A stretch of 63,502 bases of DNA, filler included, from Folioceros fuciformis (Eukaryota): assembly GCA_049999805.1 (NCBI GenBank). It is 18 parts of 18 records of this genome, joined end to end, with 100 filler letters (N's around TTAATTAATTAA, not from the genome) between each part and the next. Parts side by side here need not be neighbours in the genome. Positions count along the whole stretch, not along the records: positions 23,930 to 25,064 come from JBNGIO010002832.1; positions 25,165 to 29,115 come from JBNGIO010002833.1; 16 more parts are not named here. One strand, written 5' to 3'. A program made the translations under genes and the position numbers. The first letter of the stretch is position 1; each line of letters starts with the position of its first letter. Positions 13,136 to 43,935 of the stretch are shown piece after piece. Below the pieces are notes generated by a model. That model did no database searches. It was not told the origin of the DNA and worked only from the letters and a program-made list of their open reading frames with translations.

Positions 13136-15982
13136 CCTCGGCACTCAAGACATCGTGGCTCCTTGACTCTGCGGCTACTACTCACATTTGCAGTTCCAAG
13201 CATATGTTTACTACCTATGAGGTTTCTTCTGATCCTCCACGGTACGTGCTCCTAGGAGATGATTCCGGTCTTGCCATTCATGGCATAGGGACGGTAACCT
13301 TCAAATTAGAAGATGGTTCTATCCTTATGCTGAAGGATGTAATGTATGTTCCACAAATGGCCAAGAACCTTATCTCCATTCGTCATCTTGTGCACGATAG
13401 TTTTTATAAATTGGAGTTTAACAAATCCGCTTGTCTACTCTATCGCTTTTCTCAGCCACACAAGGTGGTTGCTAGAGGTTGTCTTCATAGCGATCTCTAT
13501 ATCTTTTCAGGCACCCTTGTGTCTTCCTCTAGTGTTTCTGTGGTGGACTCGACTAAGGATGCAGTGGCTGCAAGGCACTCGCCCTCCGAGCAAGCCTTTT
13601 TATGGCATTGTAGACTTGGGCACCTTAACTCTGCCAAGCTTCTTGCCATGTCCATGCAGGATCTCTATAGAGACAAGCTTCCCGCCTTGGCCAAGACTCC
13701 CCCATTTTGTGAAGCCTGCGTGTTGGCCAAGTAGCGTAGTGCTCCATACTCTAGTCTTCCTGCACATAGGGCGTCTCAGCCCTTGGAACTAGTACATGTG
13801 GATCTGTGTGGACCTCTACCTGTACCTTCTTTAGGCGGAGCTCGCCATTTTATGACGATTGTTGATGATTACTCTCGTTATACTTTCGTGTATCCGCTCC
13901 GTCTCAAGAGTGACTCCTTTGCTGTGTTCCAGCCTTTTGTCTCGATGGCCGAGTTGCACATAGGCTGCAAGCTGCGGTGCATTCGTTCAGACAATACTGG
14001 GGAACTCAACAACCGGCTCTTCCAAGCCTTCTGTGAAGATAGAGGGATTACTCGCCAATTTACTGTCCCTTACACTTCTTCTCAGAATGGCGTTGCCGAG
14101 AAGGCCAACGATGATCTTATGGCCATGGCTAGAGCAATGCTCACTCAGTCTGGTTTGCCGAAGTCCTTTTGGGCTGAGGCTATCTCCACAGCTTCTTATA
14201 TTAAGAACCGGCTGCTTATGAAGGCTGTTACTGTCGTACACCTTTTGAATGCTGGTTTCGATACAAGCCTCTTATCTGTCACCTTCGGGTTTTTGGCTCT
14301 CCCGCCTATGCCTATATCCCTTCCCCTTTACGAGATAAGCTTTCTTCTCTTGCACGGAAACTTGTATTTGTTGGCTATGGGGAGGACCGCAAGGCTTATA
14401 AGTTAGTAGATACTCAATCTCATGCACTGGTCTATGCTCGTACAGTAACTTTTGACGAAGGCTCTGTGCTGTCTCGTGGCCCTGTTCTGGATGGCGACGA
14501 GGATGATAGTTCTCACACTTCTAGTCCTCATCCCCTGGACGATCTATCCGTTTCCTTTGACTCTACTTCTTCGTCCTTTCCTGATGCGTCTGTTCCAGAG
14601 GCACCTTCATCTCAAGCAGCTCCGGATTCTTTGGATGCTGCTCGAGGGGGGGAAACTGACGATGATGAAGACGAAGACGTTGCATATCCAAACATAGATC
14701 CACCTACTTCAACTCCTGTACCAGATGTGCCTATGACAGGTGACAGGATAGGGGATAGTGCTCCAGAGCGGAGGTATCCTTCACGTTTAAGACAGCCAAG
14801 ACATTTGTGGGGGGAAAAACCATTTGATTTAGAATTTAATCAAGCTGGATTTATTGTTGTTGATCCCACTATGTATTCTCTAGCCATAACCTCTGCTCTT
14901 TCAGAGGGAGATCCTCTCACTCTTAGAGAAGCATATTCTAGACCGGTCGCTGACAAGTGGAAGTTAGCTGTTGATGATGAGTACAACTCTCTAGTCAAAA
15001 ATAACACTTGGCAGTTAGTAGATCTTCCCTCAGGCAGGACTACAGTCAAGTGTAAGTGGGTGCTAAAAACCAAGTTTCAAGAGGTAGAGCCCCGGATAAG
15101 ATACAAAGCCCGGTTAGTGGCCAAGGGTTATAGTCAGCGAGAGGGAGTTGACTATCAGGGTGACCAGGTTTACTCACCTGTTGTCAAAGCAGCATCTATA
15201 AGAATGCTTCTAGCTTTGTGCGCTGAACTTAACCTTACCATTTACCAATTGGATGTCTGCACAGCCTTTTTGTATGGTCATTTAGAAGAAGAAATCTATA
15301 TGGATCAGCCTGAGGACTATGAAGATAAGAAACATCCTCATAAGGTGTGTAAACTTCTACGCTCCATTTATGGGCTTAAACAAAGCCCACACCTTTGGTA
15401 CAAGCGAATTGATACATATCTTAAGAAGATTGGCTTTGTGCAAAGTGAAGCTGATACTAATCTCTATGTACTGCGACGAGACAGTTCACTTGTTTTAATA
15501 GCATTATATGTTGATGACTTAGTCATCCCTGGAAATAATGTGGAGCTGGTTAACCAGATCAAGGCAGATCTCAGTAAAGAATTTGAGATGAAAGACCTTG
15601 GTCAAGTAAAGTATATTCTAGGTATGCATGTTCATAAAGATAGGTCTACAGGAGCTATCTATCTTCATCAGGGAAGATATGTAGCTGGAATGTTGAAGAA
15701 GTTTAACTTGGAACATGCACGAGCCGCTACTACTCCAGGTGCCGTTGGCACTAAGTTGTCCTCCTCATCCTGTCCGCAGTCTGAAGAGGATAAAAAGGAG
15801 ATGGAGAGTGTGCCATATCGAATGGCAGTAGGCACTCTCATGTTCCTAAGCAACTGGACCAAACCAGATATATCTAACACTGTGAATGCAGTTGCACAAT
15901 TCTCTGAGAATCCAGGAAGAGACCACTGGGTTGCAGTTAAAAGAATAATGCGATACCTTAAGGGTACTCCTAATTTCGGTCT
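13136..15982 (+). mobile_element. Ty1/copia pol (protease, GAG-pre-integrase, integrase, RT), lightly degenerate, both ends cut by linkers
   Basis: WLLDSAATTHIC, LWHCRLGH, CEAC, LVHVDLCGP, SQNGVAEK, YKARLVAKGYSQ, IYGLKQS, LYVDDL; stop at 13732; frameshift near 14230. Confidence 0.97.
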
Positions 15983-17019: not shown

Positions 17020-18562
17020 GGTAGGGATACCATACCCGCTTGCCCACAGTTAGTCCAAATGAACTTCAAGGATTGCGGCTGACGATGCACTGGGAGGGCC
17101 AGCCACGGATCCTGTACAGCCAAGACAATGTCTCTCAGTTCCTGCCAAGACATGGGCACCGACCCAATATCTACTGGGCTCTCCCCTCGGATACCCTTCC
17201 CGTCTTTCGACAAAGTTGAAATCCCCGGCCAACATCCACAGGATCTGCTCATCCAATTGTTCCCCCAACCTACACCAGAGACTACTCCTGTCAGAGGCAG
17301 CATTGGGGGCATAAATATTACAGATGCCGAGTGGGCCTTGAGGTGTTTGCAACACTAGCCACACAAACCTACCACCCTCAACTTGACCCGACTCCAAGAT
17401 ATTATGAGTGTGTTCTGGGTGAACAGTTATGGATACACCCCCCCTGGTTGCTGATAATCGCTGAGTCGGATAATCCCCACCGCTTGCTTCCTCTGCTCTA
17501 GCTGCCACCCATTCTGTTCTACCTGGAAGAAAAAGCTTCTTCACTTTTTGGATATGCTCCATAGAAAGCTTGTGCTCTTGCAGGCAAACAATATCCCATG
17601 TGACCTCCTCTTCTAACAAGTGCTTCAGCCTCCTACACTTTGAAGCCGTCTTTGTCCATCCCCCCAAGCCCCTAACATTCCATGAAATGATTCGCAGATG
17701 TGTCCCCCTCTCATAGTTTTTTAAGGTGTCAAGACTCATCTATCAAGATTTGCTTGGGAGCTTCCGGACCGCTATAGGTTTAGGCATCCTAGCCCCAGAC
17801 ATGAGTCTAGACCGAGACAGCTGATTATTAGCTTTAAGATGAAGGGTCAGTCTCTGAATCCGTTTAGATTTACGGATGGCAGGCGCACACCTTCTGCCCT
17901 CAACACTTGAGGGCCTCTCAAACTCTCCCACTGCCATGTCTGGAGTCCAGGACCTGTCATTCGCCCACGGCACTTCTAGGGTCCACCTCCATTCAAAAGT
18001 AAGCGGCAAAATTGGTCCCCATGCCTGTTTGAGATGGATGTCAGCAAAATATATGTCACCCGTCTGGTAAACACCACTGAAAAACTCGACCTCCTTGCCT
18101 TCCTTACTCGGAAGAACCCCTCCAGATGACAAGGCAGCAAAAATCCTTTCCTGCCCTGAGTGCAACTGCTGCAATGAGATGATGATAGGGAGCAACTCTC
18201 TCTTGTCTCCTAACTTAGCCAAGTACGAGCAAGTGTTCTGAACCTTCCTCGTAACTGTAATGTTAATTAAGTATTATCTGCCTTCCTGCCTGGTTAGTTT
18301 TTCCAACGTCCAGCTTCCCTGGCCACTAATCACTGTAGGGTTCTTCAGCCTTGGATGGCAGAATCCTTGCTGCGCCACCTTGGCCTGGTCCCAGCTTCTT
18401 TCCCAAGAGCTTAGCGGAGAGGAGCAGCCTTCATCCCCAGAAAAGAGAGCTTGGACTTCATGCCAGACCAGTTCCCCGTCCTTGTCATCCTCTGCACCAG
18501 GAGTGGAGAACAAGTCGTCCTCGGAAGCATACGCAGCATTTTCACGCATGATGAGGCTACCG
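17020..18562 (-). mobile_element. L1-like LINE fragment: ORF1 C-terminal part (to 17743) and ORF2 apurinic endonuclease (ATG 17739), frameshifted and truncated
   Basis: RIISWNVRGLG, IVCLQEHKL, GGVSI, NIYAPN, LAGDFN, then a shifted frame QDPW...KFIWTN. Confidence 0.92.
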
Positions 18563-19566: not shown

Positions 19567-22500
19567 TGGCTGTTACTGGATAGTATCAAATCGTCCACAT
19601 AGACTGCTAGGTAGCATATAACCTCTCCTTTCAAGTATATGTACAAGCTGCTGTCAGCCTGGCTCTTTGTGAACCCAAGCTGTAGAAGTTCTGTGTCTAA
19701 AGCAGCATTCCATTTCATTGCTGATTGTTTTAACCCGTATATACACTTGATCAATTTACATGCATAGTGTCCCTTTCCTTTCACTTCGTACCCTGGTGGT
19801 TGTTGCATGTATATCTTTGTATCAATCTTGTCATTTAGGAATGCAGTTTTAACATCATACATCTGTATCTCATCATCGTAGTATGTTGATATTGCAAGGA
19901 GGATACGAAGTGTGGAGAGTTTAACAACTGGTGAGAACGTTTCAAGATAATCCAAGCCAGGGATTTGAGAAAATCCCCTCGCCACCAAACGAGCTTTGTA
20001 CCGGTCAAAGGTACCATCCGCTTTGACTTTAAGTTTAAAGACCCACTTGCATGAAACCAGCTTTCTGTCAGGAGGTAACTCCACCAGTTCCCATGTTCCG
20101 TTTTCAATTAATGAGTCATATTCTGACTGAATAGCTTTCCGCCATTCTTTGTGATTAGGTTGACGCAGTGCCTCTTCATATGATTGAGGCTCAATAGGAT
20201 CAAGTGAACTTGCAGCATTGACGAGCACATGAGAGGAAGATGGACGAAAGTCCAAAGCACGGTAGTAATCTGGAGGTTGACGCTGACGGGATGGATACCG
20301 TCTACCAGGTTCTTCTGCAACTTGTGGTAGATCAGGTAAGTCAGCGTCTAGGGTAGGCTCAATGATATCAGCAACTTGTTCTTGAGGATGGTAGTCATGT
20401 GGATCCGGAGGATGATCTGGAACATCTGGCTGTACAGGTACTTCAATGGCATCATCAAGGCCAACAAGCTCAAAACCTGCAGGATCACCTAAATCATCAA
20501 CCGGATCTTCCCCCCCCCCATAGGGGCAACATCCTCAACGGGAAGAACTGGGGTGCTGTGATCAGTCTGGTCAAATTGCGAATCAGGGAAGGCAGATAGG
20601 TCTGAATCATCAATGGAGGAATCCTTGGATGCTCCCACTGAAGACCAAGTGCGTCATTCAGCAAAGGTAACGCTTCGAGCATGTACAATCTTGTTTTTAG
20701 AGGCATCATAAAGCTTAGATGCTTTAATGCCCTCTGTATACCCTAACATCAATAGTTTTTGAGATTTATTAAATAACTTCTTCCGTTTTTCCTTAGGGAT
20801 AAAGGCGTATGCGATACATCCAAAGATATGCAAGTGGAGTGTAGAAGGCTTGCGCCCTGTGAACGCTTCATAAGGGGTAAGACCAACTAACGAATTTGTA
20901 GGAAGTCTGTTTTTAAGGTAGGTAGAAGTCATAATAGCTTCTGCCCAGTATGGCAGAGGAAGCTGAGCATGATGAAGGAGAGATGATGTCATCTCCTGCA
21001 GTGATAGGTTGTTTCTCTCAGCCACGCCATTTTGTTGAGGCGTGTAGATAACTGTAAGCTGGCGACCAATACCCTCAGCAGTACAGTAATCCCGAAACTC
21101 ATCAGAGGTAACTCTCCCCCGTTATCTGATCTTAGGGTTTTTAATTATTTGCCGGTCCATCGTTCCACATACTTGAGATACTCTTTAAAGTAGCTAAAGC
21201 ATTCATCTTTGTGCTTTAGAATATAAGATGTAACAAAACGTGTCTTATCATCTGTAAATGTTAGGAAATACTTGCCACCACCAATGGATGCTTATGAGAG
21301 TGGGCCACACAAGTCAGTATGGACAAGTTCCAAGACATCTGAAGCTCTGTGTGGCTCTTTGTTCTTGAAGGCTGCTTGATGGCGCTTTGTAAGAGCACAA
21401 GACTCACATAGTGGAAGTGGCATAAGAGGACCTATCTGCCCATGCTGGTACAAATCATTTGTAGCTTAACAGAGTGTGGATGACCTAGTCGTAAATGCCA
21501 AAGTTTTGACTTCTCTATCTGCTGTACAGACACTTGACAAGATCCTTCAGTCAAATGGGCATGTGGCTTACGACTGTCTGTATGAAGACGAAACAAGTCT
21601 TTCTCTGAAGACCCAAAGGCAAGTATTTTCTGATGATTAAAGGCATCTAACACTTGACATTCTGTTTGAGTAAAAAGAATGTGACAGTGATTATCAAAAT
21701 TCAACTTCCTTATGGAAATTAAGTTACGTGTCATGTCTGGTACGTAGTACACATCATGTAACACTAACACATTTCCTGATGGTACTGACAGGTCTATGGT
21801 ACCAATACCAAGAGATACAAGGGATCTATCATCCCCCAGGTATACGTACTGATCCTTGACTGATCTGTACGTTTGAAATGCCTTTCTGTCCAAGCATATG
21901 TGGGCAGTAGCCCCTGTGTCTAAATACCAGGCTATGGTATGCTGAACCTTTGTATGTGTTGACAAATAGGCAGGTGACAAGACCGAGCTTGTAGCAAAGA
22001 CTGTTGTACCAACTGTGAGGGCAGAGGGGGTTGGTTGCTTCTTAATAACCACGTGAGTCTCAGCGCTGGTTGAACCCTCCTTGCGAGGAACACCAGCCTG
22101 CTTTTTCCTGCATTCACGCTCCCAGTGACCAGGTAACTTGCACCAGTTGCAATTTCCTGTCCTTTTGGGTTTTCTTTGACGGGCTCCACGTCCTTGTGAG
22201 CCACCTCCTCTTGAGGTACTGCCCCCACCCCTATTGTAGGGTCTTCCTCCTCCATGTCCTCAGTTAGAAGTGAAGAGGGCTTGGTGTTTACCAGTGCGTC
22301 TGCTATGTGTTTTGCTAGCCTCCTCTTGCAATAAAGCTCCCACTAACTCTGCAAAGCTTGTTTCAGGTAGGGTTACACCTGAAGCCTTTGCAAGCTTTTC
22401 AGTCTAGAGCTTGGAGGAATTGAAGGATGTCACAAAGTGTGACCAAGAATCTGGTAAGGATATTAGGAAGTATAGTGTAAGTATATCATCCTTTAAGGTC

Positions 22501-22670
22501 TCATTTGTAGCACTTTCCAGTCTTGAGACAAGTGTCCTGAAATGTCCAAGGTGCTTTTCAATTGAGTCTCCTTCCCTCATTTTACATAATTGTAAATTCC
22601 TTAATGCTGTCATTTGACTTGTCTGGTTGCTGCCTGAATACAGGTCTTGAAGTCTTATCCATATTTCAGC
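19567..22670 (-). mobile_element. Degenerate Ty1/copia gag-pol (gag, CCHC knuckle, protease, integrase, RT up to YVDD)
   Basis: SLPDSWSHF, CNWCKLPGHWEREC, WYLDTGATAHIC, LWHLRLGH, QNGVAER, YKARLVARGFSQ, IYGLKQS, VYVDDL; same family as 27826-29115. Confidence 0.97.
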
Positions 22671-23829: not shown

Positions 23830-26800
23830 NNNNNNNNNNNNNNNNNNNNNNNNNNNNNNNNNNNNNNNNNNNNTTAATTAATTAANNNNNNNNNNNNNNN
23901 NNNNNNNNNNNNNNNNNNNNNNNNNNNNNCAGTTGGGATTCTAGATTGTAAGGGCTGTGGATGTGAAGGACTAGCCCGTAACCGTGCCAACTCTTGAAGT
24001 GACCGAGTAATTTGAGTATGAAGTCTAAGTTGTTCCTCTACTTCAGAATCAGTGGAAGCATGTGCATCTACAGGCTCAAGCTCACCTGGTAAGTCCGACT
24101 CCCTGCTGGATGATGAGGCCGACATACACAATCTAGCAAAAGACGGGTAGGCTACCTCCATAGAAGACTTAAAAAAAACTATTCTAAAGTCCTTTTTCTA
24201 AGAAACTCAAATTGAAGTTAATTAAAAAGGAGCTTCTAAAAAAAAGTTTTTTTTTTTTAAGGAAAAAGGCCCAACGCAACAAACCGCCAACTTAAACACG
24301 ACGGGGCGAACCGCCAACTTAAAAGGAAGGCCGAAACGCTAAGTTGCCGCAACTCGACGCACACCGCGACACGGGGAAAACGGGCACAAACTCTAAGCAC
24401 ATGTGGAAGAAGAATCCTCATGGGCAACCTTCCAGGCGTCGATCCAAATCTGTAAACCACACAAGAGCAGGGGAGCGCCCAGCGGCAAACAGCAAAAACT
24501 AGGGATTGCGTCGTCCCGCGAGTGCCTGCACCCCTTCAGATCTCAAACTGCTTCAGAGGAGAGGAACATCCCGCCGCGGGCGAGATGGCTTCAACGATGG
24601 CAAATACATGGCCACCAATGGGTCTCTGGTAGAAAGATCAGGCGCCCGCCCTAGCCATGAGGAGTGTGCCGCAAAATTTTTATCCAGAAGATCTTCAACT
24701 GCTGAGAATCGCCTGCACACCTCTCCGTTTAAGTGAAGAAGAGACTCCACAATTCCATTCACCACAGTCTTCAGATCTATGAGAGAAGCAAGGGATGCAT
24801 GAATCGCAGCAGAAACCTTCCGGCAAAGCTCTGAATCATCTGAATTGTGGACACGTGAATCCCTAGCAAAATTTTTCCTTGTATCCCTTGTGTAATTCCT
24901 ACACGAGTTCCGAAGAAAAGATTGCCTCTAACTCTTGTGCACAATCCTATTATGATCCCTAGAGCAAGGTAAAGTGTCCCCCAAGAATCCAGGTTTCCTA
25001 ACAGCCTGCCTAAATTGTGATCTCAGATTAGAAGAAGGCTGGAAGAAAAACTCTGAAGACCGACNNNNNNNNNNNNNNNNNNNNNNNNNNNNNNNNNNNN
25101 NNNNNNNNTTAATTAATTAANNNNNNNNNNNNNNNNNNNNNNNNNNNNNNNNNNNNNNNNNNNNGATTGAAAATAAAGTTTTCAATTATGTATTCATGAA
25201 CCAAGTTTTCAAGTTTCAAAGTCTTCAAGTTTACTTTTAGGAATTGAGCTTAAACTCAAAAGCTTCCATGTTGCAAACAAAGTAACAACCGCTACACCAT
25301 TCCCTATATCCATACTATTCATTGTTTTTGTTCAATTATATAGATTCTAAAAAAATGCATGGGCCTAGGGTCTAAGAGTGCATTGGTTTACCGACGTACT
25401 CTAATGTTAGTGTGGAGTGCACCGATCTACCAGAGTACTCTTGAAAAAAATGTCCGAAATCAGGAACCATGGAACGTCAGCACTCTACCTTTAATGCCAA
25501 TTTACGATTTTATCAAGGAAGGAGTCATGTGGCTAGGAATATCATTTTCACTAAGTAACTAGATAGTTTCATACACTTTTGTTGCAACACACCCACAATT
25601 TTGTTGTCTTTGATTGCCATCATGATGAAATGGAAGTACAACATCAACTTTTTAGAGTTCATTTCCGCATGTTGCACAAGAAAACCAATAGAATTATGGA
25701 TATGTGCCACAAAAATTACACAACAATTTCATCTGAAGCTTAATATGGCGGAATCCAACCATTAGGCGCAGACCATCTTACACGAGAACATGTCAGAGAG
25801 AATCACTCTTAATGACATCCCCTAATCAAGATCAAGCAAGTGGCTCCCTTACTCCATGGGCCATTACTCTTAAGCATATCAAACTCAACCTAATTCTAGC
25901 TAGCTCCCCTTATTCAAGCCCTCCATCCATCCCTTATTAGGAACTCACCTAAGCCATAGTCTCTTTATTCATTGACCATCAGACTTTCTACTTCTTCCTT
26001 TGACGGAATCCACTCCAATATTAGAGGTAGGGTTCAATCAAGCCTAAATCTCATCAACTTCTACTAGACCAGTAACAATGCTCTCCATCACGTCTTTTGT
26101 GGCCCAATTCTATCTATTGCTCGTGGAGTGAGTGGAGGGAGCTTCCTCCTTTCCGCCAACTCATTGTTTGCTCTCCTAGATGCCACCAAGTCCTAAGCCA
26201 CTTTGTCCCAATGCTACTAGAGTGCGATCTGTCCTCTTCTAATTACTTTGGTGTTACTTCGTCAGACCTTCAACAAATCTCCATGCTTATGAGATGGAGA
26301 GGCTGACCTTGTCATGGGATTTTGATTATCTGCTGCTCACAAGAGTTGTGATGCCTGAGCGCTGCAAGTGATGAGAATAGGGTGTTAATACCTTAGGTTT
26401 CGTTTGGTGAATGCGTTCATAGCTACTATAAGTCTAGGTGCCCATTCATTTGGGTTACGTCCTTTATGAAAGGGTGTGTCTATTCACCCTACCTAGCTTA
26501 AGTTCAATTATTTGTCTATGCTGTATATAATTATTATTTAATCAATATAATAATATAATTGTTTTATAACAATTCGTCTACACCAATTTCCATATTTTCT
26601 CATGGTATCAGAGCAAGGTTTAGGTGTAGATTACACTTGTGATAATGCACATTAAAATCTGCACATTCTAATGTGCACGACAATGTATTTTGTTTATATG
26701 TTTTATTGTTGTTTTCTTTTAAAGAAACTATTTTAAAACATACTTCAAGAAATAGGTTTATAGCTTTCTTGATTTTATATTTAGAATATTTGCACTTCTA

Positions 26801-26963
26801 GTAGGTTGTTCTAGTGTATCCATTGTCAGATTGCACTCTAGCAATCTGGCACTAGGCACGCTAGAACAACTGCCAGAATTGGTAAATATTTAATTATAGA
26901 ATCATTTACAAAGCTACAAATGTTTCTTAAAAAATAACAAAATACAAAAGCTTGGCCAAATGA

Positions 26964-27671
26964 ATGGCCAATTTGGTGGACGGGCAGCAATGGCGGCCAC
27001 GCCCTGCTGAGCGCATCCAACAGAGGAATGCCCACAGAGGACAACGAATTCAAGAGGGCAGGCTGACTTTTGCAAAATCACTTCACCATCAAACCCTGGA
27101 TTGGACTCTTCAAACACAAGACCAGCCTGAACAATCCCGGCTTGTGAGAGATTCCTTCAACTATCTGCTTGAGGCTATCTTCCCACAACAGCACCATTTG
27201 TTGCTTCCTCCACCACCCAGGAATCAAATTAATCTTCCACCCATTGTAAACGGTAACCCTAGGGGTTTCCTGACAACACACACATCACCACATGTTAGTG
27301 TGTCACAATTAAATGCAAGAATAAAAACACTTCAACAACATGTTGACGAGCGTTTCCAGAGCATTCGTCATAAGATAGCTGAAGTCAGTGTTGACTTGCA
27401 AGATTTGAAGGAACGTATAGGACATTTGGACTTCAAGTTGCTTACCTTGCTTAAGCCCGTTTTGCTAACAAATCCTGCACTCAGAGGTGTTGCTTGCAAA
27501 CGTGCTAACAAGAATTATAAGCAACACACTTTTGACGCTCCAAATTCCTGTCCTTCATGCTCTGTTCATACATTTAACATATGGGAGATTAGACATCCAA
27601 GGATAGAAAATAGATTAGCAAATCAACAGGCCAATTTACCTCAAGTTGGTAGATTTGCTCACCCCTTGTAG
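26964..27671 (+). CDS. Intact 235-aa extra ORF between the PBS and gag (Arg/Gln-rich N-terminus, Pro tract, coiled coil, CxxC); function unknown
   Basis: Uninterrupted ATG-to-TAG frame; heptad segment VSQLNARIKTLQQHVDERFQSIRHKIAEVSVDLQDLKERIGHLD. Confidence 0.7.
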   Translation: MANLVDGQQWRPRPAERIQQRNAHRGQRIQEGRLTFAKSLHHQTLDWTLQTQDQPEQSRLVRDSFNYLLEAIFPQQHHLLLPPPPRNQINLPPIVNGNPRGFLTTHTSPHVSVSQLNARIKTLQQHVDERFQSIRHKIAEVSVDLQDLKERIGHLDFKLLTLLKPVLLTNPALRGVACKRANKNYKQHTFDAPNSCPSCSVHTFNIWEIRHPRIENRLANQQANLPQVGRFAHPL

Positions 27672-27825
27672 ATAGGGCTGCTCCTGCAGTTTATTTAAGA
27701 TGCAACAGTAGCCTCTTACCTCTTCCCAGTCTTTCTCTTCAATTTGTACCTTGTCTGGATAGGCTACAAAGCTGCATACAGCCATTTCTCCTAACAGTTA
27801 GGATAGAATTACTACATTCTAATAA

Positions 27826-29115
27826 ATGGCAGATACCACTACTGTAGTTGGTGATATTTTTAAGGAGAAAGATAGATTTGGGGGGATTGACTATGACATC
27901 TGGGTCATGCGTATGAAAGGAGCCTTACAAAGTAAGAAGCTATGGAAGATAGCAACAGGAAATGAATCACTTCCAACACCTACTGCATCTTCTGAATCTT
28001 CTCCTTCTTCTACTGAAAAAAGATACCAAGAAGCTTGGTATACAAAGGATGAAGCTGCAATGCACCTGTTGAGAAGTGGACTAACCTCTGACATGCTGCG
28101 ACAGACTTCTGGCTGCAATACATCTTTTGAGATATGGACCAGATTACATGAGCTGTACGCAGGTGTTAATACCACAAGTCAGATGACAGCCCTTCGCAAC
28201 ATTCAAAATTGCAAAATGAGAGAAGGGGAGACAGTTGAAAAACATGTTGGGCATTTTAGATCACTTGTTTCTAAGTTAGAAAGTGCTTCACAGGAGGCTC
28301 TATCTGATGAGCTGCTTACCTTATATTTCATGATGTCTCTCCCTGACTCATGGTCACACTTTGTGACATCTTACAATGCTCCTCAGCCACAGGCTTCAAA
28401 GATAGCTAAGGCTGCAGGTGTCACAATACCACAGACAACATTTTCTGAGTTAGTGGGAGCTCTTCTTCAGGAAGAAGCTACAAGAGGACAAAACAGGCGT
28501 GCAGGCAAGCAGCAGGCTCTTTACACCACAAATAAAAACAAGGGCGCAAGGCCCAACTTCAAAGGTAAACAGAATACCTTTCAAGGTGCTGGTGCCTCAC
28601 GGCGAGGGACAGCACAGAAGAAACCCAAGAAGTCTGGAAAATGCCACTAGTGCCAGATTCCAGGACATTGGGAAAATGAATGTCGAAAGAAGCAGGCCGG
28701 AGTACCTCGCAAGGAGGGCAACTCTACTTCTGAGACACATGTTGTGGTGAAAAAGCAAGGCTCACCTTCTACCCTTACAGTAGGGATTAGGAAGTTTGCA
28801 TATCCTCTTGTTAACCCCACCTGTTTGTCTGCAAACACACAAGGTAAACCAGTCAGCGAGTGGTACCTTGATACAGGTGCAACAATGCACATATGCTTTG
28901 ACAAAAATGCCTTTGTCACATACGAGTTAGTAGACAATCAGTTTGTTTACTTAGGTGATGACAGATCACTAGTGTCTCCAGGCAGAGGCACTATAGAAAT
29001 TCCAGTCCCTCCTGGAGTTACACTCATATTGAAAGATGTGTACTATGTTCTAGAAATGACTAGGAATCTCATCTCTGTTAGGAGACTCAACATGGATAAT
29101 AATACTTACATCCTA
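27826..29115 (+). pseudogene. Copia gag-protease with an in-frame TAG at 28648 inside the zinc knuckle
   Basis: DYDIWVMRMKGAL...LWKIATG, SLPDSWSHF, CH*CQIPGHWENEC, WYLDTGATMHIC in one frame. Confidence 0.93.
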
Positions 29116-29215
29116 NNNNNNNNNNNNNNNNNNNNNNNNNNNNNNNNNNNNNNNNNNNNTTAATTAATTAANNNNNNNNNNNNNNNNNNNNNNNNNNNNN
29201 NNNNNNNNNNNNNNN

Positions 29216-29460
29216 CTTCGAGTATGAGGATCGTTGCGAGAAGCGCCTCTTCTCGTTCCCTCTGTTGGCTACTTACATGCATGGCAGACACTTCGAGTAT
29301 GAGGATCGTTGCGAGAAGCACCTCTTCTCGTTCCCTCTGTTGGCTACTTACATGCATGGCAGACACTTCGAGTATGAGGATCGTTGCGAGAAGCGCCTCT
29401 TCTCGTTCCCTCCGTTGGCTACTTACATGCATGGCAGACACTTCGAGTATCAGGATCGCG
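29216..29460. repeat. 75-bp tandem repeat, ~3.2 copies (cut by linker)
   Basis: cttcgagtatgaggatcg... at 29216, 29291, 29366, 29441. Confidence 0.97.
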
Positions 29461-29734: not shown

Positions 29735-30100
29735 GTGCCCTCTCCGGTGTCCTAACTAACTTAAACAAAACATGATTGTGAGTGTACCGAAACGTGAGGG
29801 AGGGAAGAAAGTAGGTGTCCTCTCCGGTGTCCTAACTAACTTAAACAAAAAGTGATTGTGAGTGTACTGGGACGTGAGGGAGGGAAGAAAGTAGGTGTCC
29901 TCTCTAACTTAAATAAAAAGTGATTGTGAGTGTACCGGGATGTGAGGGAGGGAAGAAGGTAGGTGTCCTCTCTAACTTAAACAAAAAGTGATTGTGAGTG
30001 TACCGGGATGTGAGGGAGGGAAGAAAGTAGGTGTCCTCTCTAACTTAAACAAAAAGTGATTGTGAGTGTACCGGGATGTGAGGGAGGGAAGAAAGTGGGT
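29735..30100. repeat. Tandem array of 80-bp units followed by 68-bp units
   Basis: gtgtcc anchor at 29815, 29895, 29963, 30031. Confidence 0.95.
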
Positions 30101-30356
30101 GTTCGGATCCTTTATCTTTGCACCGTATACCGCCGCCTGCCCGCCACCCTTAAATATCTATGAAAGAACCCTGTCCGTATGGGTATTCCATACTTTAAAA
30201 GTAGTAATAGAAAAATCCTTCTTATTATAAGATTAGTCACAAAATTCTTTTATAACNNNNNNNNNNNNNNNNNNNNNNNNNNNNNNNNNNNNNNNNNNNN
30301 TTAATTAATTAANNNNNNNNNNNNNNNNNNNNNNNNNNNNNNNNNNNNNNNNNNNN

Positions 30357-30972
30357 GAGCACTAGCAGGAGAAGGAGAACGTGTTCGTGTAGGAGGACAA
30401 GCAGGTTCATATCCTTGAGCACTAGCAGGAGAAGGAGAACGTGTTCGTGTAGGAGGACAAGCAAGTTCATATCCTTGAGCACTAGCAGGAGAACGAACAC
30501 GTTGATATACTTTAGCATACGCGGGAGGGTGACCATACTGACATCCTTGAGCGGGTGCAGAGGGGTCATATCCTTGAGCGGGTGCAGAGGGGTCATATCC
30601 TTGAGCGGGTGCAGAGGGGTCATATCCTTGAGCGGGTGCAAAGGGGTCATATCCTTTAGCAAATGCAAGGCGACCATATCCTTGAGCTGATGCACGAAGG
30701 TTGAGGTCACGTCTTTGAGTTGATGCAGGCTGACCATTTCCTTGTGCATATGAAAGATCCATGGGTCGATTTCCATTTCCTTGTGCATATGAAAGATCCA
30801 TGGGTCGATTTCCATTTCCTTGTTCATATGAAAGATCCATGGGTCGATTTCCTTGATGTTCACCGGAGTGATGAGCTGTAGCTTGTATGGCTTCTCTATC
30901 TGGTGTGTTGCCCTTGCACAACCTTTTTCCATTCATGTTGTTTGGAGCTTCTTGGAATTTTCTCTTCTCCAT
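30357..30972 (-). CDS. Unknown repeat-rich protein, N-terminal part (MEKRKFQEAP...), open into the linker
   Basis: 39-, 27- and 60-bp internal repeats all preserve frame; basic NLS-like start; TATA-like TATAAAA upstream at ~31238. Confidence 0.45.
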
Positions 30973-35436: not shown

Positions 35437-36951
35437 TCAGTTATCAGCCTTCCGTTTACATAAACTTACTAGACATCCGTCCTTCGGCGCAATGGTGGGA
35501 GTGTACAGGAGATCATCACACCCTGGTGTGCGGACCCGGGTCCAGTCCACCAAGGATGTGAAGAGAGCAACAAAGAGCATCAGGTGGTTAATAGCATACC
35601 GCTGTCCCAAACATTGGTGAGGTCCTGCTCCGAATGGGAGCCAGTTCCTTTTGTGCAAAAGGTCCTCTTGCCGCTCTGGAGAAAACCTGCCGGGATCAAA
35701 GGTGTGTGGGTTTGTGAAGCCTTGGAAGGAGGATTCGAATAGCGATGGGAAGACAATGGTGCCTTTGGGAACTGTGTAGGTGTCTGTGAGAGCAAAATCT
35801 GAATTCGCTACGTGGGGAACCATGGTTGCTGGGGGTCGGAACCTCAACACCTCCTTCACCACCATCTCAGTATACTTGAGCTCTCTAAGTTGTTCAGGAG
35901 TGAAGAAGCTGGATGGATCGGGCTTCACAGACTTCACCTCTTGCCTCACCTTTGAAAGCACCTCAGGATGGGAATCGAGGAGGCTTACAGCCCAGGCAAG
36001 AGAGGACGTTGATGCATCCTGTGCCGCAAACAGGAAGTCAAATATGTGCTGTCCAATGTCAGCATCAGAACTGTGTGGAGGTGGTGGGAGGCCAGCTGCT
36101 GCCGCCTCCTGTATCTCCTTCACGGTTTCCACCATCCAGAAGTCTGTCAGGCAAGCTGGGTCCTCAACTTTCATCATTCTCTTCTTGCTTAGCTTCGCAC
36201 AACCCGCAAGGGCGTCAATGAGCCTTTGAACAGCGTGATTGGCCTTGTAGAAAGCAAATCCGGGGAAGTTAACAGGGACACTCATCAGCCCCACGTTGAA
36301 GAGATTGTAGTCCTCGAAGAACTGCAACCTGGCATCCTGATTGAGGTAGGGCCCCACGAAAGCATTCTGCGAGGTCTCCAAGTTGAGATCCCTGCACAGG
36401 CTTCTCAATTGCACTGGATCACTTCCAGTGCGTTCCGCCATCTGAAGCCATTTTCCAATGTGCTGACGAATCGTTCTCTCTTGTATGGACACATACACGC
36501 CAAGGGCCTTGAGAGTGAAGAGGGGAGCAAGCCTCCGTCTCAAATCCTTGTGCTCTTCTCCATACATGAAAATAAGATTGCGCTCACCAAAGATCTTCTT
36601 GCCGAAAGGATGTCCAACAAGTTGGAATACCTCAGGCTTTACATTCGCAAAGATTTTCTGTGACATTTCAGAGTCTCTCACAAACACCACAAACCTGCCG
36701 AATAACACGTTCCACGACATGCCAATTTTCCTGGCAGCGCTGGCCTGAGCGTCCCAAAATCTTGTCGGATCGTTCACCACGCCTAATAATCCCCCAAAAA
36801 ATGGAAATACAAAACCAGGTCCTGGCAAGTGCTTTCCTTTCCTCATGTATGTGAGCTGCTCCAAAAGGAGCAGCAGAGTCAAAACCAAACCCGTAAGCAG
36901 CCGCCAATCAGCAGCCCAAAACCATCCCATCAGAGACGAGGGCTGCTCCAT
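35437..36951 (-). CDS. CYP710A: Cytochrome P450 CYP710, sterol C-22 desaturase; intronless, ~504 aa
   Basis: N-terminal TM helix, LPGP hinge, GHPFGKK, FDFLFAAQDASTS (CYP710/CYP61 I-helix), EVLR, FGAGPHQCLG heme motif; first ATG at 36951. Confidence 0.97.
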   Translation of the reverse strand: MEQPSSLMGWFWAADWRLLTGLVLTLLLLLEQLTYMRKGKHLPGPGFVFPFFGGLLGVVNDPTRFWDAQASAARKIGMSWNVLFGRFVVFVRDSEMSQKIFANVKPEVFQLVGHPFGKKIFGERNLIFMYGEEHKDLRRRLAPLFTLKALGVYVSIQERTIRQHIGKWLQMAERTGSDPVQLRSLCRDLNLETSQNAFVGPYLNQDARLQFFEDYNLFNVGLMSVPVNFPGFAFYKANHAVQRLIDALAGCAKLSKKRMMKVEDPACLTDFWMVETVKEIQEAAAAGLPPPPHSSDADIGQHIFDFLFAAQDASTSSLAWAVSLLDSHPEVLSKVRQEVKSVKPDPSSFFTPEQLRELKYTEMVVKEVLRFRPPATMVPHVANSDFALTDTYTVPKGTIVFPSLFESSFQGFTNPHTFDPGRFSPERQEDLLHKRNWLPFGAGPHQCLGQRYAINHLMLFVALFTSLVDWTRVRTPGCDDLLYTPTIAPKDGCLVSLCKRKADN

Positions 36952-39100: not shown

Positions 39101-39612
39101 AGTAATACCACTACACTTAAGAGAAAAGATACACAAAGGCTAAACTTTGTAGTTGCTACTAGGCTAAGTTATAGCGCTATTAATTATGTTTGCAACTAAT
39201 TATCATAAAGCCTTTACTTGATTATAGCTTTTTGAATGATGAAGTTAGCAATCGATTAGCTTCTAAAACTATTTTCATACTACACATCAATGAACTTATA
39301 GCTTGACCACATCCATGAACTAGCTTGACAACTTTCACCCATTGTTGTAGCTTCATTGGTACCTAATCCTTATGACACACCAACCACTTACAAGCATACT
39401 TTACTTAGCCCACAAAAGTTAGAAGGACAAAAAAATGATTGATTCAAAATATGATAGTCTTATTGGCAGAAAAACCTACTAATTAATTTTAGTATAAGTA
39501 GATTGAAAAGCAATCACACACTTAGAAGTGGGTGTTTAAGTTAAAGCTTAAACCTAACAAATCTATACTTCATTATAGGCCAGATTGGTAGCAAAGTGCC
39601 ATCCTAGGTCTA

Positions 39613-39802
39613 GGGGTTGGATTGTAATAAAATAGGGCCGGCCTGATTCTGGGGTTGGATGGTAATAAAATAGGGCCGGCCTGATTCTGGGGTTGGATGG
39701 TAATAAAATAGGGCCGGCCTGATTCTGGGGTTGGATTGTAATAAAATAGGGCCGGCCTGATTCTGGGGTTGGATTGTAATAAAATAGGGCCGGCCTGATT
39801 CT
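39613..39802. repeat. 38-bp tandem repeat x5
   Basis: ggggttggat(t/g)gtaataaaatagggccggcctgattct. Confidence 0.97.
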
Positions 39803-41877
39803 GCTGACTGTGCTGTGTGTGACCACTCCTTATTAAATTGAGGTGAGGTGGTTCCAGCCATATATATATTTTGTTGTTTGGGAGTAGCAGTGTACGGAAT
39901 AGTGGAGCTTTAAAACGTGATAGAACTCAGGGACACATCACGTACACCTGCGCAATTATCCTATTTCATCTTTCCTGAGGTCCGACACATCACAGCTCGT
40001 GGGGAGACCTGGTGAGGCAAGCTTGGTTGCTTAATGAGTGTTTGATTGCCGTATCAAAAGGTTTCGAAGTTGTCAGTGGCACATTATGGACCCGGAATGG
40101 CTGCGAAGTGATTTCACCAGAGGCATCAGTCTGCAGACTCTGCATGCAGCCTTGCGAGTGAAGAAAGCATGGTCAAGTGAGGGAGCCGACGCCATCTTGA
40201 GAGCTATTTCCCACGTGGGGACTGGACGGCCAGATGAAACTATGGGNNNNNNNNNNNNNNNNNNNNNNNNNNNNNNNNNNNNNNNNNNNNTTAATTAATT
40301 AANNNNNNNNNNNNNNNNNNNNNNNNNNNNNNNNNNNNNNNNNNNNTCGGAGAGTCACTCGAGATTATGGCTTCACTCAAGCACCTCGCTATTACCAGAT
40401 GTTCGGCGAGAATTGGATGGATGCCCTCATCCATACCTTGTAAGAACAAGGGTGGTCTCCGCCATCAGGATTCCATCGTCATCAATCCGAGACGGCATCA
40501 GATCACTCAGGAGAGCCCTTGAACTGACAACATCGGAGAACACAAGAGCAATTGAGAAGATCTAACTCTCTGCCTCAATCTCAACTCGATTCAAGCCACG
40601 GAGAGGTGCTTCTCTAGGGCGCCTTGATCGGCTAAGGTCCCACAGACGTCAAGCTTCCTCAACTGACCAAGAATCCTCAAGGAGCTTTGTGGATTGGGCG
40701 GAGAGCGATGAGGATTTGATCATCATCGAATCTCAGTAATTACAGCATTCATCTTGAGAGAGGAAGCGCGAGATCTGTACAAGCCTAGGGCGCCTCAGCT
40801 GCTAGAGTCGACGTCGACCAAGGAGGCGCTCCTTCAGCAATCGCCCCGCCAACCACCATCCTCACCGACCTCAGAGATGCGGGAGCAGGAGGCGCGCAAG
40901 GGGGAGGCAGACAATTTGCCCTAGGCACTTCGCGGGCGGTTGCACCCGCCGGCAAACCGTTATCCAACTTAAGTTGGATAACGCGCAGCTGCACCCGCAG
41001 GGTCGCAAGTTGATTGACCCTAAACCCACTGAATAGCGATATCTTCAACTTGCTTGACATATTTACAAGACAAGAAGTGTGGCTCAACTACCTAGTGTGT
41101 ATGGAGCAAGCAGCCACTCAATTCGTGTCCTACTCATACTTGTAGTTATGGTAAAGGTATTTTTCCAGAGTAAGGGTTTTGAAGAGCAACAGGCTCTTCA
41201 CATGCTCTCTTTGCGTTGCGCTAAAGATTCGTATCCGCAACACCTCCAGAGTAGAACAAGGTATCCTTCAAGATTAAAGGGGATGCTTTATGATAAGTTT
41301 GTTAGATGCCACTATATCCCTTTGCTCCAATGTCTACCCTCTCCTTGCTTAAACCCACAGTAGAGATTGTGAAGAACCAAGGCAGGAGATGCACTGGCAT
41401 GCCACCACATATCCATGCGGCCAAGGTTAAGACATAGGGGACATGGTCTACAATTTGTGCTCATGCATGTTCACCATTTGTAGTTGGTGCACCGATAAAC
41501 CGGCACACCAAAGGCATAAGAGTCGTTTATTTTCAAGTTGTAAGAAACATGTCCACCAACAGCATGGTCTGGAAGTTAAAAATAAGAGAAGTGTTAATGT
41601 ATAACGCATGTCAACAAATGATGATTTTCTAAAAAATAGGTAAAATGTGGATACATTACTAGGATTTTGTTATCTCAAGCGTGCACTAAACGGGGTATAT
41701 GGAATCTAATTGTTAGGCGTAGACTATATTACATGTATTTAGTTTATTGGGGATGAAAGGTGAGAACTTATCTTAGACTAATGATAACCTATTAAAGACC
41801 TATACATCATGACAATATAGGATAAGAATAGGACTATCCTATTGGTGATAGTGGACGACCCACATTACTGAATGATT

Positions 41878-42170
41878 GAGGTTGAGAGCGATGACTTTGT
41901 AAACACTGAGTAGGAGCACCTGAAAGATGTTGAGAGCGATGACTTTGTAAACACTGAGTAGGAGCACCTGAAAGATGTTGAGAGCGATGACTTTGTAAAC
42001 ACTGAGTAGTAGCACCTGAAAGATGTTGAGAGCGATGACTTTGTAAACACTAAGTAGTAGCACCTGAAAGATGTTGAGAGCGATGACTTTGTAAACACTC
42101 AGTAGTAGCACCTGAAAGATGTTAAGAGCGATGACTTTGTAAACACTAAGTAGTAGCACCTGAAAGATGT
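41878..42170. repeat. 48-bp tandem repeat x6
   Basis: gatgttgagagcgatgactttgtaaacactgagtaggagcacctgaaa. Confidence 0.97.
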
Positions 42171-43518
42171 AAACGTCGTTGTAGATTCAAAGGCAAATCA
42201 AGAAGACCCCTTTTCGTTTTAAATAACAATTGTTCCCATTTGCAACCCTAGAACCCTTTTTCTTCGCGAAAAAAAAGGCATACCTAGCCTAAACTAATTT
42301 CTATTTCTATGTCCCTATGATTCTATGTTCCTATGATACAATACATGATCATACTTGCTATGAACTTTCCCTCTAACAAGGGAATGTCTCAAATCCCTTG
42401 AATTAGTTAGCATGTTGACTCATTCCTTTAGACAACTAAGTTACGTAAGTGTCATGTAATATTCCTTCTTACATTTAGACAACTAAGTTATGTAAGTGTC
42501 ATGTAACATGTGAACCATAATAAGTGTCATGTAATATTCCTTCTTATAATATTCCTTCTTACATTTAGATAACTAAGCTATGTAAGTGTTATGTAACATG
42601 TGAACCATAACAATTCATAAATGATGAGCACACTTACAAATTGTGAAAGTGTAGTAGCAACATAGCAACTTTGTGGTCCAAAGAAATAGATGATGGAAAT
42701 GAAGTGCAAACAATTATTACTTGGAGGCAAGTTTGACACAAACGACTACAAAAGTTTGGTTGTTCACTTGCCCCTCTCTCTTGTGCATCTTGTTAATGTA
42801 AAGACCTATCAACTATAGTGTCAATAATCATCAAGACCTTCTAAATTGATCATATAGACCTTTATTTCTTGAGAGTTGGAAAAATATATATTCGTCTCAT
42901 AAATGTTCAACATTACAACCCAAGAACCTAAGAGATACATCCTAACTTGTTGCTACACATTCTCCTAGAAGATTACAATCCCTTTAACAACATCCTAAGT
43001 ATCTTTTGCTATTTATCATATTTCAGTATATAAATTTTTTTCTTATAGTTCAAGGCACTCACTTACTTTCCAAGTACGCCTAGGGAGAAATTATTTTTGG
43101 CCTTAAAAAGTTTCAAAGATATTTTGATATTTTTTATCCCTACCTTAAAATGTTTTGTCGTTAGGCTAGACTCCGACGGGTATAACATTTCGCAAATGTA
43201 CCATATGGATAGGAGGGAATATTGTGACGGAAATGGCGTGCGGCTATTTTGCACTTGAATACATTCGATCCTCCTTTCTCCTTCTGCGTTGTGAATTGGG
43301 TAGAGAGCGTTTCGCGGATTGGAATTTGGAAGCCGCTGTCTCCTCACCGTCGTAAACGAAGGAAAGACTCGGGTCAGGAGCGCATTAGCCGGGGTGATAA
43401 GATTCCATCTTCATCGATNNNNNNNNNNNNNNNNNNNNNNNNNNNNNNNNNNNNNNNNNNNNTTAATTAATTAANNNNNNNNNNNNNNNNNNNNNNNNNN
43501 NNNNNNNNNNNNNNNNNN

Positions 43519-43935
43519 ATCGTGTGCCCTACTTTGTTGACAAGAGAATGAGCTTCAAACCCTGGATCTAGATCGTGTGCCCTACTTTGTTGACAAGAGA
43601 ATGAGCTTCAAACCTTGGATGCCCTACCTTACTGAGAAGAGAATGATCTTCAAACCATGGATGATGTAGACCATGTGCTCTACCTTGTTGACAAGAGAAT
43701 GAGCTTAAACCTTGGATGTAGACTATGTGCCCACCTTGTTGATAAGAGAATGAGCTTCAAACCCTGGATCTAGATCGTGTGCCCACCTTGTTGACAAGAG
43801 AATGAACTTCAAACCCTACATCTAAACCGTGTGCCCTACCCTTTTTGACCAGAGAATGAACTTCAAGCCCTGCATCTAGACCTTGTGCCCTACCCTTGTT
43901 GACCACAGAATCAGCTTCAAACCTTGGATCTAGCC
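43519..43935. repeat. Degenerate ~53-55-bp tandem repeat, ~8 copies
   Basis: atcgtgtgccctac...gacaagagaatgagcttcaaaccctggatctag variants. Confidence 0.9.

Follow-up and report, generated by a model that had tools for sequence, protein, structure and literature searches.

Does an LTR retrotransposon of Folioceros fuciformis carry an additional gene between its primer-binding site (PBS) and gag, and what kind of sequence would such a gene be? The question arises from the window, a stretch of 63,502 nucleotides that consists of 18 contigs with N44-TTAATTAATTAA-N44 spacers between them. The contig at 25165-29115 (3,951 nt), the end of which falls inside the protease, holds the 5' third of such an element, and the open reading frame in its leader is probably a lineage-specific 5' extra ORF. 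The features on which the analysis is based are given below.

26383..26602, + strand: 5' LTR, 220 nt, with TG at 26383 and CA at 26602 (sequence and depth step)
26603..26614, + strand: PBS TGGTATCAGAGC, complementary to the 3' end of tRNA-Met, directly after the CA of the LTR (sequence)
26615..26963, + strand: upstream leader, 349 nt, about 70% A+T, with short upstream ORFs (composition)
26964..27671, + strand: extra ORF, 235 codons plus stop, a real-looking frame for a basic coiled-coil protein (ORF list)
27300..27461, + strand: coiled-coil part of the extra ORF, residues 113-166 (heptad chain and AlphaFold2 helix)
27672..27825, + strand: spacer from the ORF stop to the gag ATG, 154 nt, with the acceptor-like TTCTCCTAACAG (sequence)
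27826..29115, + strand: gag and start of the protease, 1,290 nt, cut at the contig end (Pfam profiles)
28648..28650, + strand: in-frame TAG of gag, in its CCHC zinc knuckle, private to the copy in the window

The boundaries of the LTR, which contains TATATAA at about 26525, were set by a step in depth in two DNA runs (X1 and X2) together with the adjoining PBS: the summed depth of the contigs climbs from 8.2/8.6 over the flank bins 25825-26352 to 225/320 over the bin 26353-26484, and an X1 contig of the single-copy flank ends at 26378, 5' of the LTR. The 5' LTR stands alone on the contig, with no second LTR copy found within the window, and neither a reverse transcriptase nor a 3' LTR was found on this contig, which ends at 29115. 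Nine copia families of Jatropha have the 12-mer TGGTATCAGAGC as their tRNA-Met PBS according to PMC3852365; the window contains no tRNA genes for comparison with it. The gag frame, read with X at its stop, matched PF14223 (Retrotran_gag_2) with an E of 1.2e-27 and 96.9 bits against a cut-off of 27, and was followed by PF22936 (Pol_BBD; E 1.5e-21), the sole Pfam domain after gag. Weak matches to DUF4219 and zf-CCHC were also found in gag. By gag domain and PBS, sequence similarity supports the assignment to Ty1/copia that the earlier note had made, and the order that it described (LTR, PBS, 349 nt, 235-codon ORF, 154 nt, gag with one stop) agrees with the sequence at all coordinates.

The extra ORF is a sense frame between the PBS and gag, in another frame than gag and separated from it by 154 nt and stops, with a TAA directly 5' of the gag ATG. 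Its stop-to-stop length is also 235 codons, given a TGA at 26961-26963, and its A+T content is 56%, versus 70% in the leader upstream. The start codons of this ORF and of gag share their context, with A at -3 and G at +4. Seven ATGs in 26602-26960 open frames of 5-21 codons, the last of which, at 26960, overlaps the start of the extra ORF; these upstream ATGs would hamper its translation by scanning ribosomes. No tandem arrays were found inside 26964-27671 (Tandem Repeats Finder, minimum score 30), so that repeats do not explain the open frame.

All the protein features that had been described from the sequence were found again, namely an Arg-rich N-terminus (7 R within residues 1-33), PPPP at residues 82-85, a heptad stretch and CPSC at residues 196-199. 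The protein is basic (K+R 30, D+E 18, H 14), has a single Met and carries C-x17-C-x2-C-x2-H in its C-terminal part. The heptad chain comprises 12 successive hydrophobic positions with alternating 3/4 spacing over residues 127-166, whereas no chain longer than 7 positions occurs in the remaining five frames of the contig. The AlphaFold2 model is poor as a whole (mean pLDDT 56.7; below 50 for residues 182-235), and its best-scored stretch is a helix at 113-153 (block pLDDT 78-88). The ORF resembles a genuine coding sequence for a coiled-coil protein.

One could put these observations down to chance, i.e. to a random open frame in a leader that is long and non-coding: LTR elements may have a long leader, and several long frames could catch notice when 63 kb are scanned. 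However, an open frame of at least 235 codons, with all six frames considered, arose only once in 5,000 mononucleotide shuffles, never in 5,000 first-order Markov sequences and twice in 5,000 random sequences of the ORF's own composition, i.e. no more than 2 times in 5,000 under each null. The 12-position heptad chain was reached by only 2 of 20,000 shuffles of the protein, and on the opposite strand the leader's longest frame has 80 codons. The chance explanation is close to refuted and in our judgement very improbable; the frame is real coding-type sequence.

To set an extra ORF apart from a single-copy transduction, Vicient and Casacuberta (2020) ask that it occur in most or all members of a family. 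In our case, the segment with the extra ORF belongs to a repeated family and not to one copy. Summed contig depth reaches about 12-26 times the level of the single-copy flank, and it amounts to 99-217 in the extra-ORF bins, versus 8.2-8.6 in the flank, and to a similar 103-284 in the first gag bins, although such sums over contigs do not equal copy numbers. The highest depth within the ORF was found in the two bins covering 27277-27540, which contain the coiled-coil part. The segment with the ORF thus has about the depth of the start of gag, and it is joined to gag in other copies, as in a 323-nt contig (depth 39/57, 5 differences) that spans 27599-27921 and links the ORF end to gag. Among the X1 family contigs, 84 of 276 are at least 95% alike, indicating that part of the family is young, and 192 are less than 95% alike. 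Three low-depth joints (5.7-9.8) among the 15 listed of 20 skip parts of the ORF (26835-27263, 27010-27168 and 27364-27698), so some copies have lost these parts or diverged strongly in them.

The copy in the window is itself dead, judged by its gag stop and its mostly non-synonymous private ORF changes. At 28649, a letter other than that of this copy is carried by 597.5 of 629.5 depth units of X1 and by 762.3 of 804.6 of X2. Among the nine listed differences between its extra ORF and those of other copies, eight are non-synonymous and one is synonymous, which amounts to neutral decay of this copy. The earlier note had observed an uninterrupted ORF beside a broken gag; this contrast is no indication of selection, as the stop is private to this copy and the listed ORF changes are mostly non-synonymous.

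The protein is an orphan in the libraries searched, which may lack the organism's own genes. No Pfam family exceeded its cut-off in the extra ORF (best E 0.036, 12.5 bits versus a cut-off of 35), and the domains of the Ogre, Athila and Retand extra-ORF proteins, PF10536 (plant mobile domain), PF03078 (Athila ORF-1) and PF04195 (Transposase_28), did not reach theirs. A comparison with 1.84 billion representatives returned one match, to a low-complexity coil; none of 230 candidates matched, the other 17 contigs of the window held no relative, and no fold match was found. The structure and homology checks proposed in the earlier note, which had named a known copia 5' ORF and a host gene as the matches that would speak against its reading, thus gave no match in the libraries searched, although these are thin for close relatives, with gag itself getting 2 matches at 24-27% identity. 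Searches of these libraries gave no hint that a conserved host gene had been captured. The lack of relatives is expected also for a young, functionless frame. Two other candidates were set aside. Coils of viral fusion proteins gave weak matches that were not significant (best E 0.052 in the PDB and 0.036 in Pfam), and a displaced piece of gag finds no place here, as BLASTP against gag returned nothing and gag has a normal N-terminus, with DUF4219 and Retrotran_gag_2 starting at gag residues 19-30.

Extra ORFs are common in plant LTR retrotransposons and mostly known from Ty3/gypsy, and to our knowledge none has a proven function. The earlier note had stated that 5' extra ORFs are typical of the Ty3/gypsy Ogre elements and that copia extra ORFs normally lie 3' of pol, which is roughly right by Neumann et al. 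2019. Supplement 5 of that survey (PMC6317226) gives 5' forward extra ORFs for Tekay (33%), TatII (23%) and Ogre (21%), all of them Ty3/gypsy, and a 3' forward extra ORF for 74% of SIRE elements; among the 16 copia lineages as tabulated in PMC6317226, other extra-ORF classes appear only in Bianca and Ikeros (5 and 2; 4 and 6 per cent; classes unassigned). The extra ORF here shares position, orientation, a separate frame and freedom from tandem repeats with the class eORF-5'F as described in PMC6317226, but its 235 codons fall below the cut-off, so that it would go uncounted there; this cut-off of 250 codons is a convention of Neumann et al. 2019 rather than a biological criterion. A 5' extra ORF is known mainly as a Ty3/gypsy trait and is rare in copia.

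Env-like proteins are defined by membrane segments. Only one extra ORF typifies a copia lineage, the env-like ORF of SIRE, which is heterogeneous in sequence. It lies 3' of pol, whereas the ORF here is located 5' of gag and lacks membrane segments (highest 19-residue Kyte-Doolittle mean 1.14); its 5' position and this hydropathy maximum rule out an env-like ORF as in SIRE or Athila. Proteins of the LINE-1 ORF1p type offer a working analogy only, drawn from another element class: the product of the first ORF there forms oligomers through a coiled coil, binds nucleic acid with basic parts and serves its own transcript as an RNA chaperone. The extra ORF contains no Pfam match to an ORF1 family and no recognisable RRM or CCHC knuckle. 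The 5' aORF of the sunflower element Tekay 13-2, as reported in PMC11728184, is likewise a sense frame between the 5' LTR and gag, and its protein, like the one here, is without a known domain and combines basic NLS-like stretches, proline richness, few helices and disorder. According to the same report, the Tekay 5' aORF is family-specific and without sequence similarity between species; the sunflower protein has about 400 residues and occurs in 500 of 523 group members, compared with 235 residues here. Tekay is Ty3/gypsy and our element Ty1/copia, and the likeness is one of description, not of sequence comparison. Accessory sense ORFs 5' of gag are also described for the Drosophila MDG1 group (412, Stalker2) in PMC11952523, where sORF1 and sORF2 have low ratios of non-synonymous to synonymous rates, which shows that an ORF in the leader of an LTR element can have a function. 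Their architecture is unlike that of the ORF here, as they belong to animal Ty3/gypsy elements, have about 110 and 70 residues, and sORF2 resembles a membrane fusogen (PMC11952523).

On balance, with about even confidence, we regard the locus as the 5' third of a decaying copy of a moderately repeated Ty1/copia family whose leader carries a lineage-specific 5' forward extra ORF. It is possible, though we rather doubt it, that the ORF is instead a functionless relic, i.e. a piece of a host coiled-coil gene or mobile element that was picked up by the founder, or a frame that arose in the leader, kept open only through young, similar copies while the element needs nothing from it. The orphan status of the protein in the libraries searched, the seven upstream ATGs, the predominance of non-synonymous private changes (8 of the 9 listed) and the partly young family (84 of 276 X1 contigs) all favour such a relic, and so does the high heterogeneity of extra-ORF proteins noted in Neumann et al. 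2019 (PMC6317226). Against it, the heptad pattern and the 235-codon frame appear to be kept across a family in which 192 of 276 X1 contigs are less than 95% alike, and a host homologue was not found, although the searched library may lack the organism's proteome. Small indels among the family contigs also speak against it. Among the 12 listed of 24, two fall in the LTR, eight in the upstream leader (at 26619-26776) and two in the spacer (at 27721 and 27728), whereas none falls in the 708-nt extra ORF or in the 1,290-nt gag-protease part; that is, 10 occur in 515 nt of leader and spacer and none in the ORF. With the ORF and the non-coding parts taken together, the chance that no indel falls in the ORF is 3e-4 for 12 independent events, but only 0.07 for four, and the listed indels come from about four variant contigs, with 12 further indels and 450 further substitutions beyond them.

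If the lineage-specific extra ORF is an accessory gene, its protein could associate with itself through the coil and bind nucleic acid through its basic parts and, by analogy with the Tekay 5' aORF proteins, it may be an accessory factor in RNA handling, particle assembly or nuclear import. It would be translated from the full-length RNA. As 9 ATGs separate the start of the ORF from that of gag, gag-pol would in that case depend on re-initiation, on internal entry, or on an RNA that is shorter or spliced.

One such route, in which gag-pol comes from RNA with the ORF spliced out at an acceptor at 27797, seems unlikely to us. In its favour, scanning ribosomes would seldom arrive at gag on unspliced RNA given these ATGs, and removal of the ORF would bring the gag ATG forward; a donor-like TG/GTAAAT at 26882 (6 of 8 consensus positions), paired with this acceptor, would remove 916 nt and with them the whole ORF. 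The acceptor-like TTCTCCTAACAG is indeed present at 27786-27797, 28 nt before the gag ATG, as the earlier note had pointed out, but as evidence of splicing it carries little, because the motif is common: the + strand of the contig has 14 of them, 7 in the leader, by a permissive criterion (8 or more pyrimidines among 11 positions, followed by N and YAG). With three donor-like sites in the leader as well, a pair is expected by chance. Plant introns are usually AT-rich, the reverse of the candidate intron, which has 57.8% A+T versus 67.7% for the leader upstream; likewise, known splicing in plant copia elements removes pol sequence and not the leader, which also counts against the proposal. A family contig (depth 37/65) joins 27769 to 27849 and leaves 27770-27848 unaligned, including TTCTCCTAACAG and the gag ATG, so that the motif may not be conserved, and the joint 26882-27797 is absent among the 15 listed of 20 joints in the DNA runs. 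Other retroelements do use splicing: Ogre has an intron according to PMC6317226, and subgenomic gag RNAs of copia elements are reported in PMC5580714 and PMC3735527. The most far-reaching possibility, a copia lineage with a retrovirus-like layout, in which a conserved 5' gene encodes a basic coiled-coil protein that binds RNA or evades silencing and gag-pol comes from leader-spliced or internally initiated RNA, we likewise consider improbable.

With one truncated, dead copy and indirect family evidence, the case is a lead, not a finding. If the ORF is under selection in this copia family, 5' extra genes would have arisen independently in both superfamilies, and its product, a small protein of 235 residues with one clear coiled coil, would be tractable for studies of RNA binding, oligomerisation and localisation. 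Should the retrovirus-like layout hold, it would mark the first case of a copia lineage that is defined by an accessory gene at the 5' end, and it would offer a handle on the role of 5' extra ORFs.

The window is composed of 18 contigs of 1.0-10.1 kb (1,041-10,120 nt) rather than one genomic stretch. The contig joints are N44-TTAATTAATTAA-N44 spacers, for example at 25065-25164 and 29116-29215, and features that cross them, including ORFs listed with runs of X, are artefacts. The copia element studied here lies on a contig of 3,951 nt (25165-29115) and runs off the contig end inside the protease, so only its 5' third is visible, and no integrase, reverse transcriptase (RT) or 3' LTR is present. 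The features described in the earlier note were each located in the sequence and the ORF list, and that observation is confirmed:

26383-26602: LTR, 220 nt, TG...CA
26603-26614: primer binding site (PBS) TGGTATCAGAGC, directly after the LTR
26615-26963: upstream leader, 349 nt, directly after the PBS, about 70% A+T
26964-27671 (+): extra ORF, 235 codons
27672-27825: spacer between the ORF and gag, 154 nt
27826: gag start (ATG)
28648-28650: in-frame stop in gag, inside the CCHC knuckle

The 12-mer TGGTATCAGAGC is given as the tRNA-Met primer binding site of Jatropha copia families in PMC3852365. In two DNA sequencing runs with the same organism label, the flank bins at 25825-26352 had a summed contig depth of 8.2 and 8.6, which leapt to 225 and 320 in the bin beginning at 26353, and a single-copy flank contig stops at 26378; the LTR start is thus independently supported. 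The gag frame, read with X at its single in-frame stop, matched Pfam Retrotran_gag_2 (1.2e-27) and Pol_BBD (1.5e-21). Scanning the contig and the window for Rfam families and tRNA genes gave no match. Upstream of the LTR, the flank at 25486-25780 holds another dispersed repeat, with a depth of 25-60 versus 8 further on, and is matched by contigs of 1.6-2.2 kb with 50 differences and 6 gaps.

Other mobile elements and one gene were found elsewhere in the window. A second, different copia at 19567-22670 (-), cut at both contig ends, contains the gag C-terminus, protease, integrase and RT (Pol_BBD 7.9e-25, RVT_2 4e-54) and shares 66% DNA identity with the gag-protease of the studied element (951 nt aligned). 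Two further copia fragments, at 4722-5699 (+; RVT_2, 2.9e-36) and 13735-15980 (+; integrase core, SH3_retrovirus and RVT_2, 2.9e-72), have no DNA similarity to it. An ORF at 17050-17736 (-) weakly matches Exo_endo_phos (1.9e-5), the kind of endonuclease found in LINE-type elements, and an uninterrupted 504-codon cytochrome P450 gene (PF00067, 1.1e-55) at 35437-36951 (-) looks like an intact, intron-free host gene. Several short contigs are dominated by tandem arrays (29216-29458, 29746-30097, 30357-30694, 39575-39841, 41825-42208 and 43528-43949) with periods of 75, 68, 60, 27, 38, 48 and about 53 nt, and the long ORFs in such contigs (e.g. 30301-30972) are repeat artefacts.

The extra ORF now codes, or recently coded, for a coiled-coil protein, and it is more than a chance frame. 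It measures exactly 235 codons from stop to stop, and the next longest frame in the 1,223-nt leader has 80 codons on the other strand. At least 235 open codons in any of the six frames occurred in only one of 5,000 mononucleotide shuffles of the same length, in none of 5,000 first-order Markov sequences, and in two of 5,000 sequences with the ORF's own, less AT-rich composition. Within residues 127-166, 12 hydrophobic residues are chained at strictly alternating spacings of three and four, and the chain reaches back to residue 116 if one stutter is allowed; a 12-position chain appeared in two of 20,000 protein shuffles, and no chain longer than seven occurred in the remaining five frames of the entire contig. 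No tandem repeat was found under the frame.

The encoded protein is basic (30 K+R, 18 D+E and 14 H) and enriched in Q, R, P and L; it contains one Met and no membrane segment. Single-sequence AlphaFold2 modelling was poor overall (mean pLDDT 56.7), its best part being a long helix at residues 113-153, and Foldseek of this model against the PDB returned nothing at E <=0.001 (best E 3.0). No Pfam family approached the cut-off, and the 230 word-sharing candidates drawn from 5.8 billion clusters all failed to score against the protein. When 1.84 billion representatives were searched in full with HMMER, a single match emerged (P0001, E 7.5e-5), a protein of tandem RFQTLQQNVD-type repeats, several of which pair only with ORF residues 114-162; this was rejected as coil or low-complexity similarity. 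Influenza HA2 coiled coils, the best hits of a PDB sequence search (E 0.052), were likewise rejected as heptad-repeat similarity, and the best ESM Atlas score, 0.75 to a Streptophyta hypothetical-protein cluster, was too low for meaning. The ORF is not a piece of gag according to BLASTP against this gag and two distant copia polyproteins (best E 0.86). Two metagenome loci (L001, L002) showed 16-22-codon matches in several frames and no other likeness to the contig, and were put down to chance. A viral-contig scan with the ORF gave no match; with gag it gave one locus (L003) sharing the zinc knuckle only, and a prokaryote genome scan with gag gave none. The predicted protein is, as judged from these sequence comparisons, an orphan. 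The earlier note had named an already described copia 5' ORF or a captured host gene as matches that would overturn its reading, and no protein relative was found in the libraries searched.

The main rival is that the ORF is a functionless frame, captured or newly arisen in a young family, which we regard as a serious but less probable explanation. The closest library entries to this gag were two matches at 24-27% identity; since the libraries are poor even in gag relatives, an absent host homologue is weak evidence against capture. The earlier note had also remarked that the ORF is intact although gag is broken. This says nothing about selection, for the gag stop is private to the window copy: nearly all aligned depth carries another letter at its middle base (597.5 of 629.5 depth units in one DNA run, X1, and 762.3 of 804.6 in the other, X2). 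The window copy shows a G-to-A or C-to-T change at 16 of the 23 places listed where it differs from essentially all aligned depth, as is usual when a silenced insertion decays. One of nine such listed differences in the ORF and three of ten in gag are synonymous; these private differences record post-insertion decay and are uninformative as a selection test. As nine or ten random changes seldom make a stop, the ORF of the window copy would be expected to stay open even if the family had no need of it.

Evidence from other copies came from Logan contigs of four runs, aligned to the element contig at 80% likeness. The ORF bins had summed depths of 99-217 in X1 and X2, about 12-26 times the single-copy flank, similar to the 103-284 of the first gag bins; such sums are not copy numbers, as the tool warns, and were used only to say that the ORF is repeated about as much as gag. 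One 323-nt contig, at depths of 39 and 57 and with five differences, covers 27599-27921, so the ORF end, the spacer and the gag start are joined in other copies as well. Of the small indels that separate the window copy from the family contigs, the 12 listed comprise two in the LTR, eight in the upstream leader (26619-26776) and two in the spacer (27721, 27728), with none of the 12 in the ORF or in gag-protease; 12 further indels and 450 further substitutions exist beyond these. With an even spread over the ORF and non-coding sequence (1,443 nt), the probability of no ORF indel would be 3e-4 for 12 independent events, and 0.07 given that the listed 12 stem from about four variant contigs. In some individual copies the ORF must carry deletions or strong divergence, since three joints of low depth (5.7-9.8) pass over parts of it; joints of this kind occur in gag as well. 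The overall pattern leans toward constraint, short of proof.

How the ORF and gag could be expressed was considered from the leader sequence. The two start codons share the same context, A at -3 and G at +4, and an in-frame stop lies immediately before each. Seven ATGs ahead of the ORF open frames of 5-21 codons, one overlapping the ORF start, and nine ATGs, including the ORF's own, precede that of gag; neither frame would be easily reached by scanning on a full-length RNA. A donor-like site at 26882, one of three in the leader with six of eight consensus positions, could pair with the acceptor-like site ending at 27797 and remove the whole ORF. The acceptor motif proposed earlier is indeed present, but it is not exceptional: by a loose rule, seven such motifs occur in the leader and 14 in the contig as a whole. 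Introns in plants are usually AT-rich; the candidate intron is 57.8% A+T versus 67.7% for the leader before it, the reverse of this pattern. One family contig fails to align across 27770-27848. None of the runs found to contain the element is recorded as RNA; in X5, the one run guessed to be RNA, only two contigs, less than 90% alike, matched the element contig, falling on gag and the flank, with no match to the ORF. Splicing out of the ORF at 27797 is improbable, a weak lead.

That plant LTR retrotransposons can carry extra ORFs is well established (PMC7264820, Vicient and Casacuberta 2020; PMC6317226, Neumann et al. 2019). In the latter study, 582 copia and 3,372 gypsy elements carried ORFs of 250 codons or more, which fell into 45 and 314 unrelated groups, respectively. 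Its table gives 5' forward ORFs in 33% of Tekay, 23% of TatII and 21% of Ogre elements and a 3' forward ORF in 74% of SIRE elements; for copia it otherwise gives only small percentages of some extra-ORF class, in Bianca and Ikeros. The open-access literature searched yielded no description of a copia lineage characterised by a 5' ORF. By architecture, the closest described proteins are the Tekay 5' aORFs, with an NLS, few helices, long disorder and proline richness, which PMC11728184 reports in 500 of 523 sunflower group members. Drosophila MDG1-group elements have two short ORFs ahead of gag that act as functional accessory genes, according to PMC11952523.

The interpretation in the earlier note is partly supported. 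Our best reading, held with evenly balanced confidence, is of a 5' extra ORF specific to one copia lineage, encoding a basic coiled-coil protein whose function may be suggested by analogy only.
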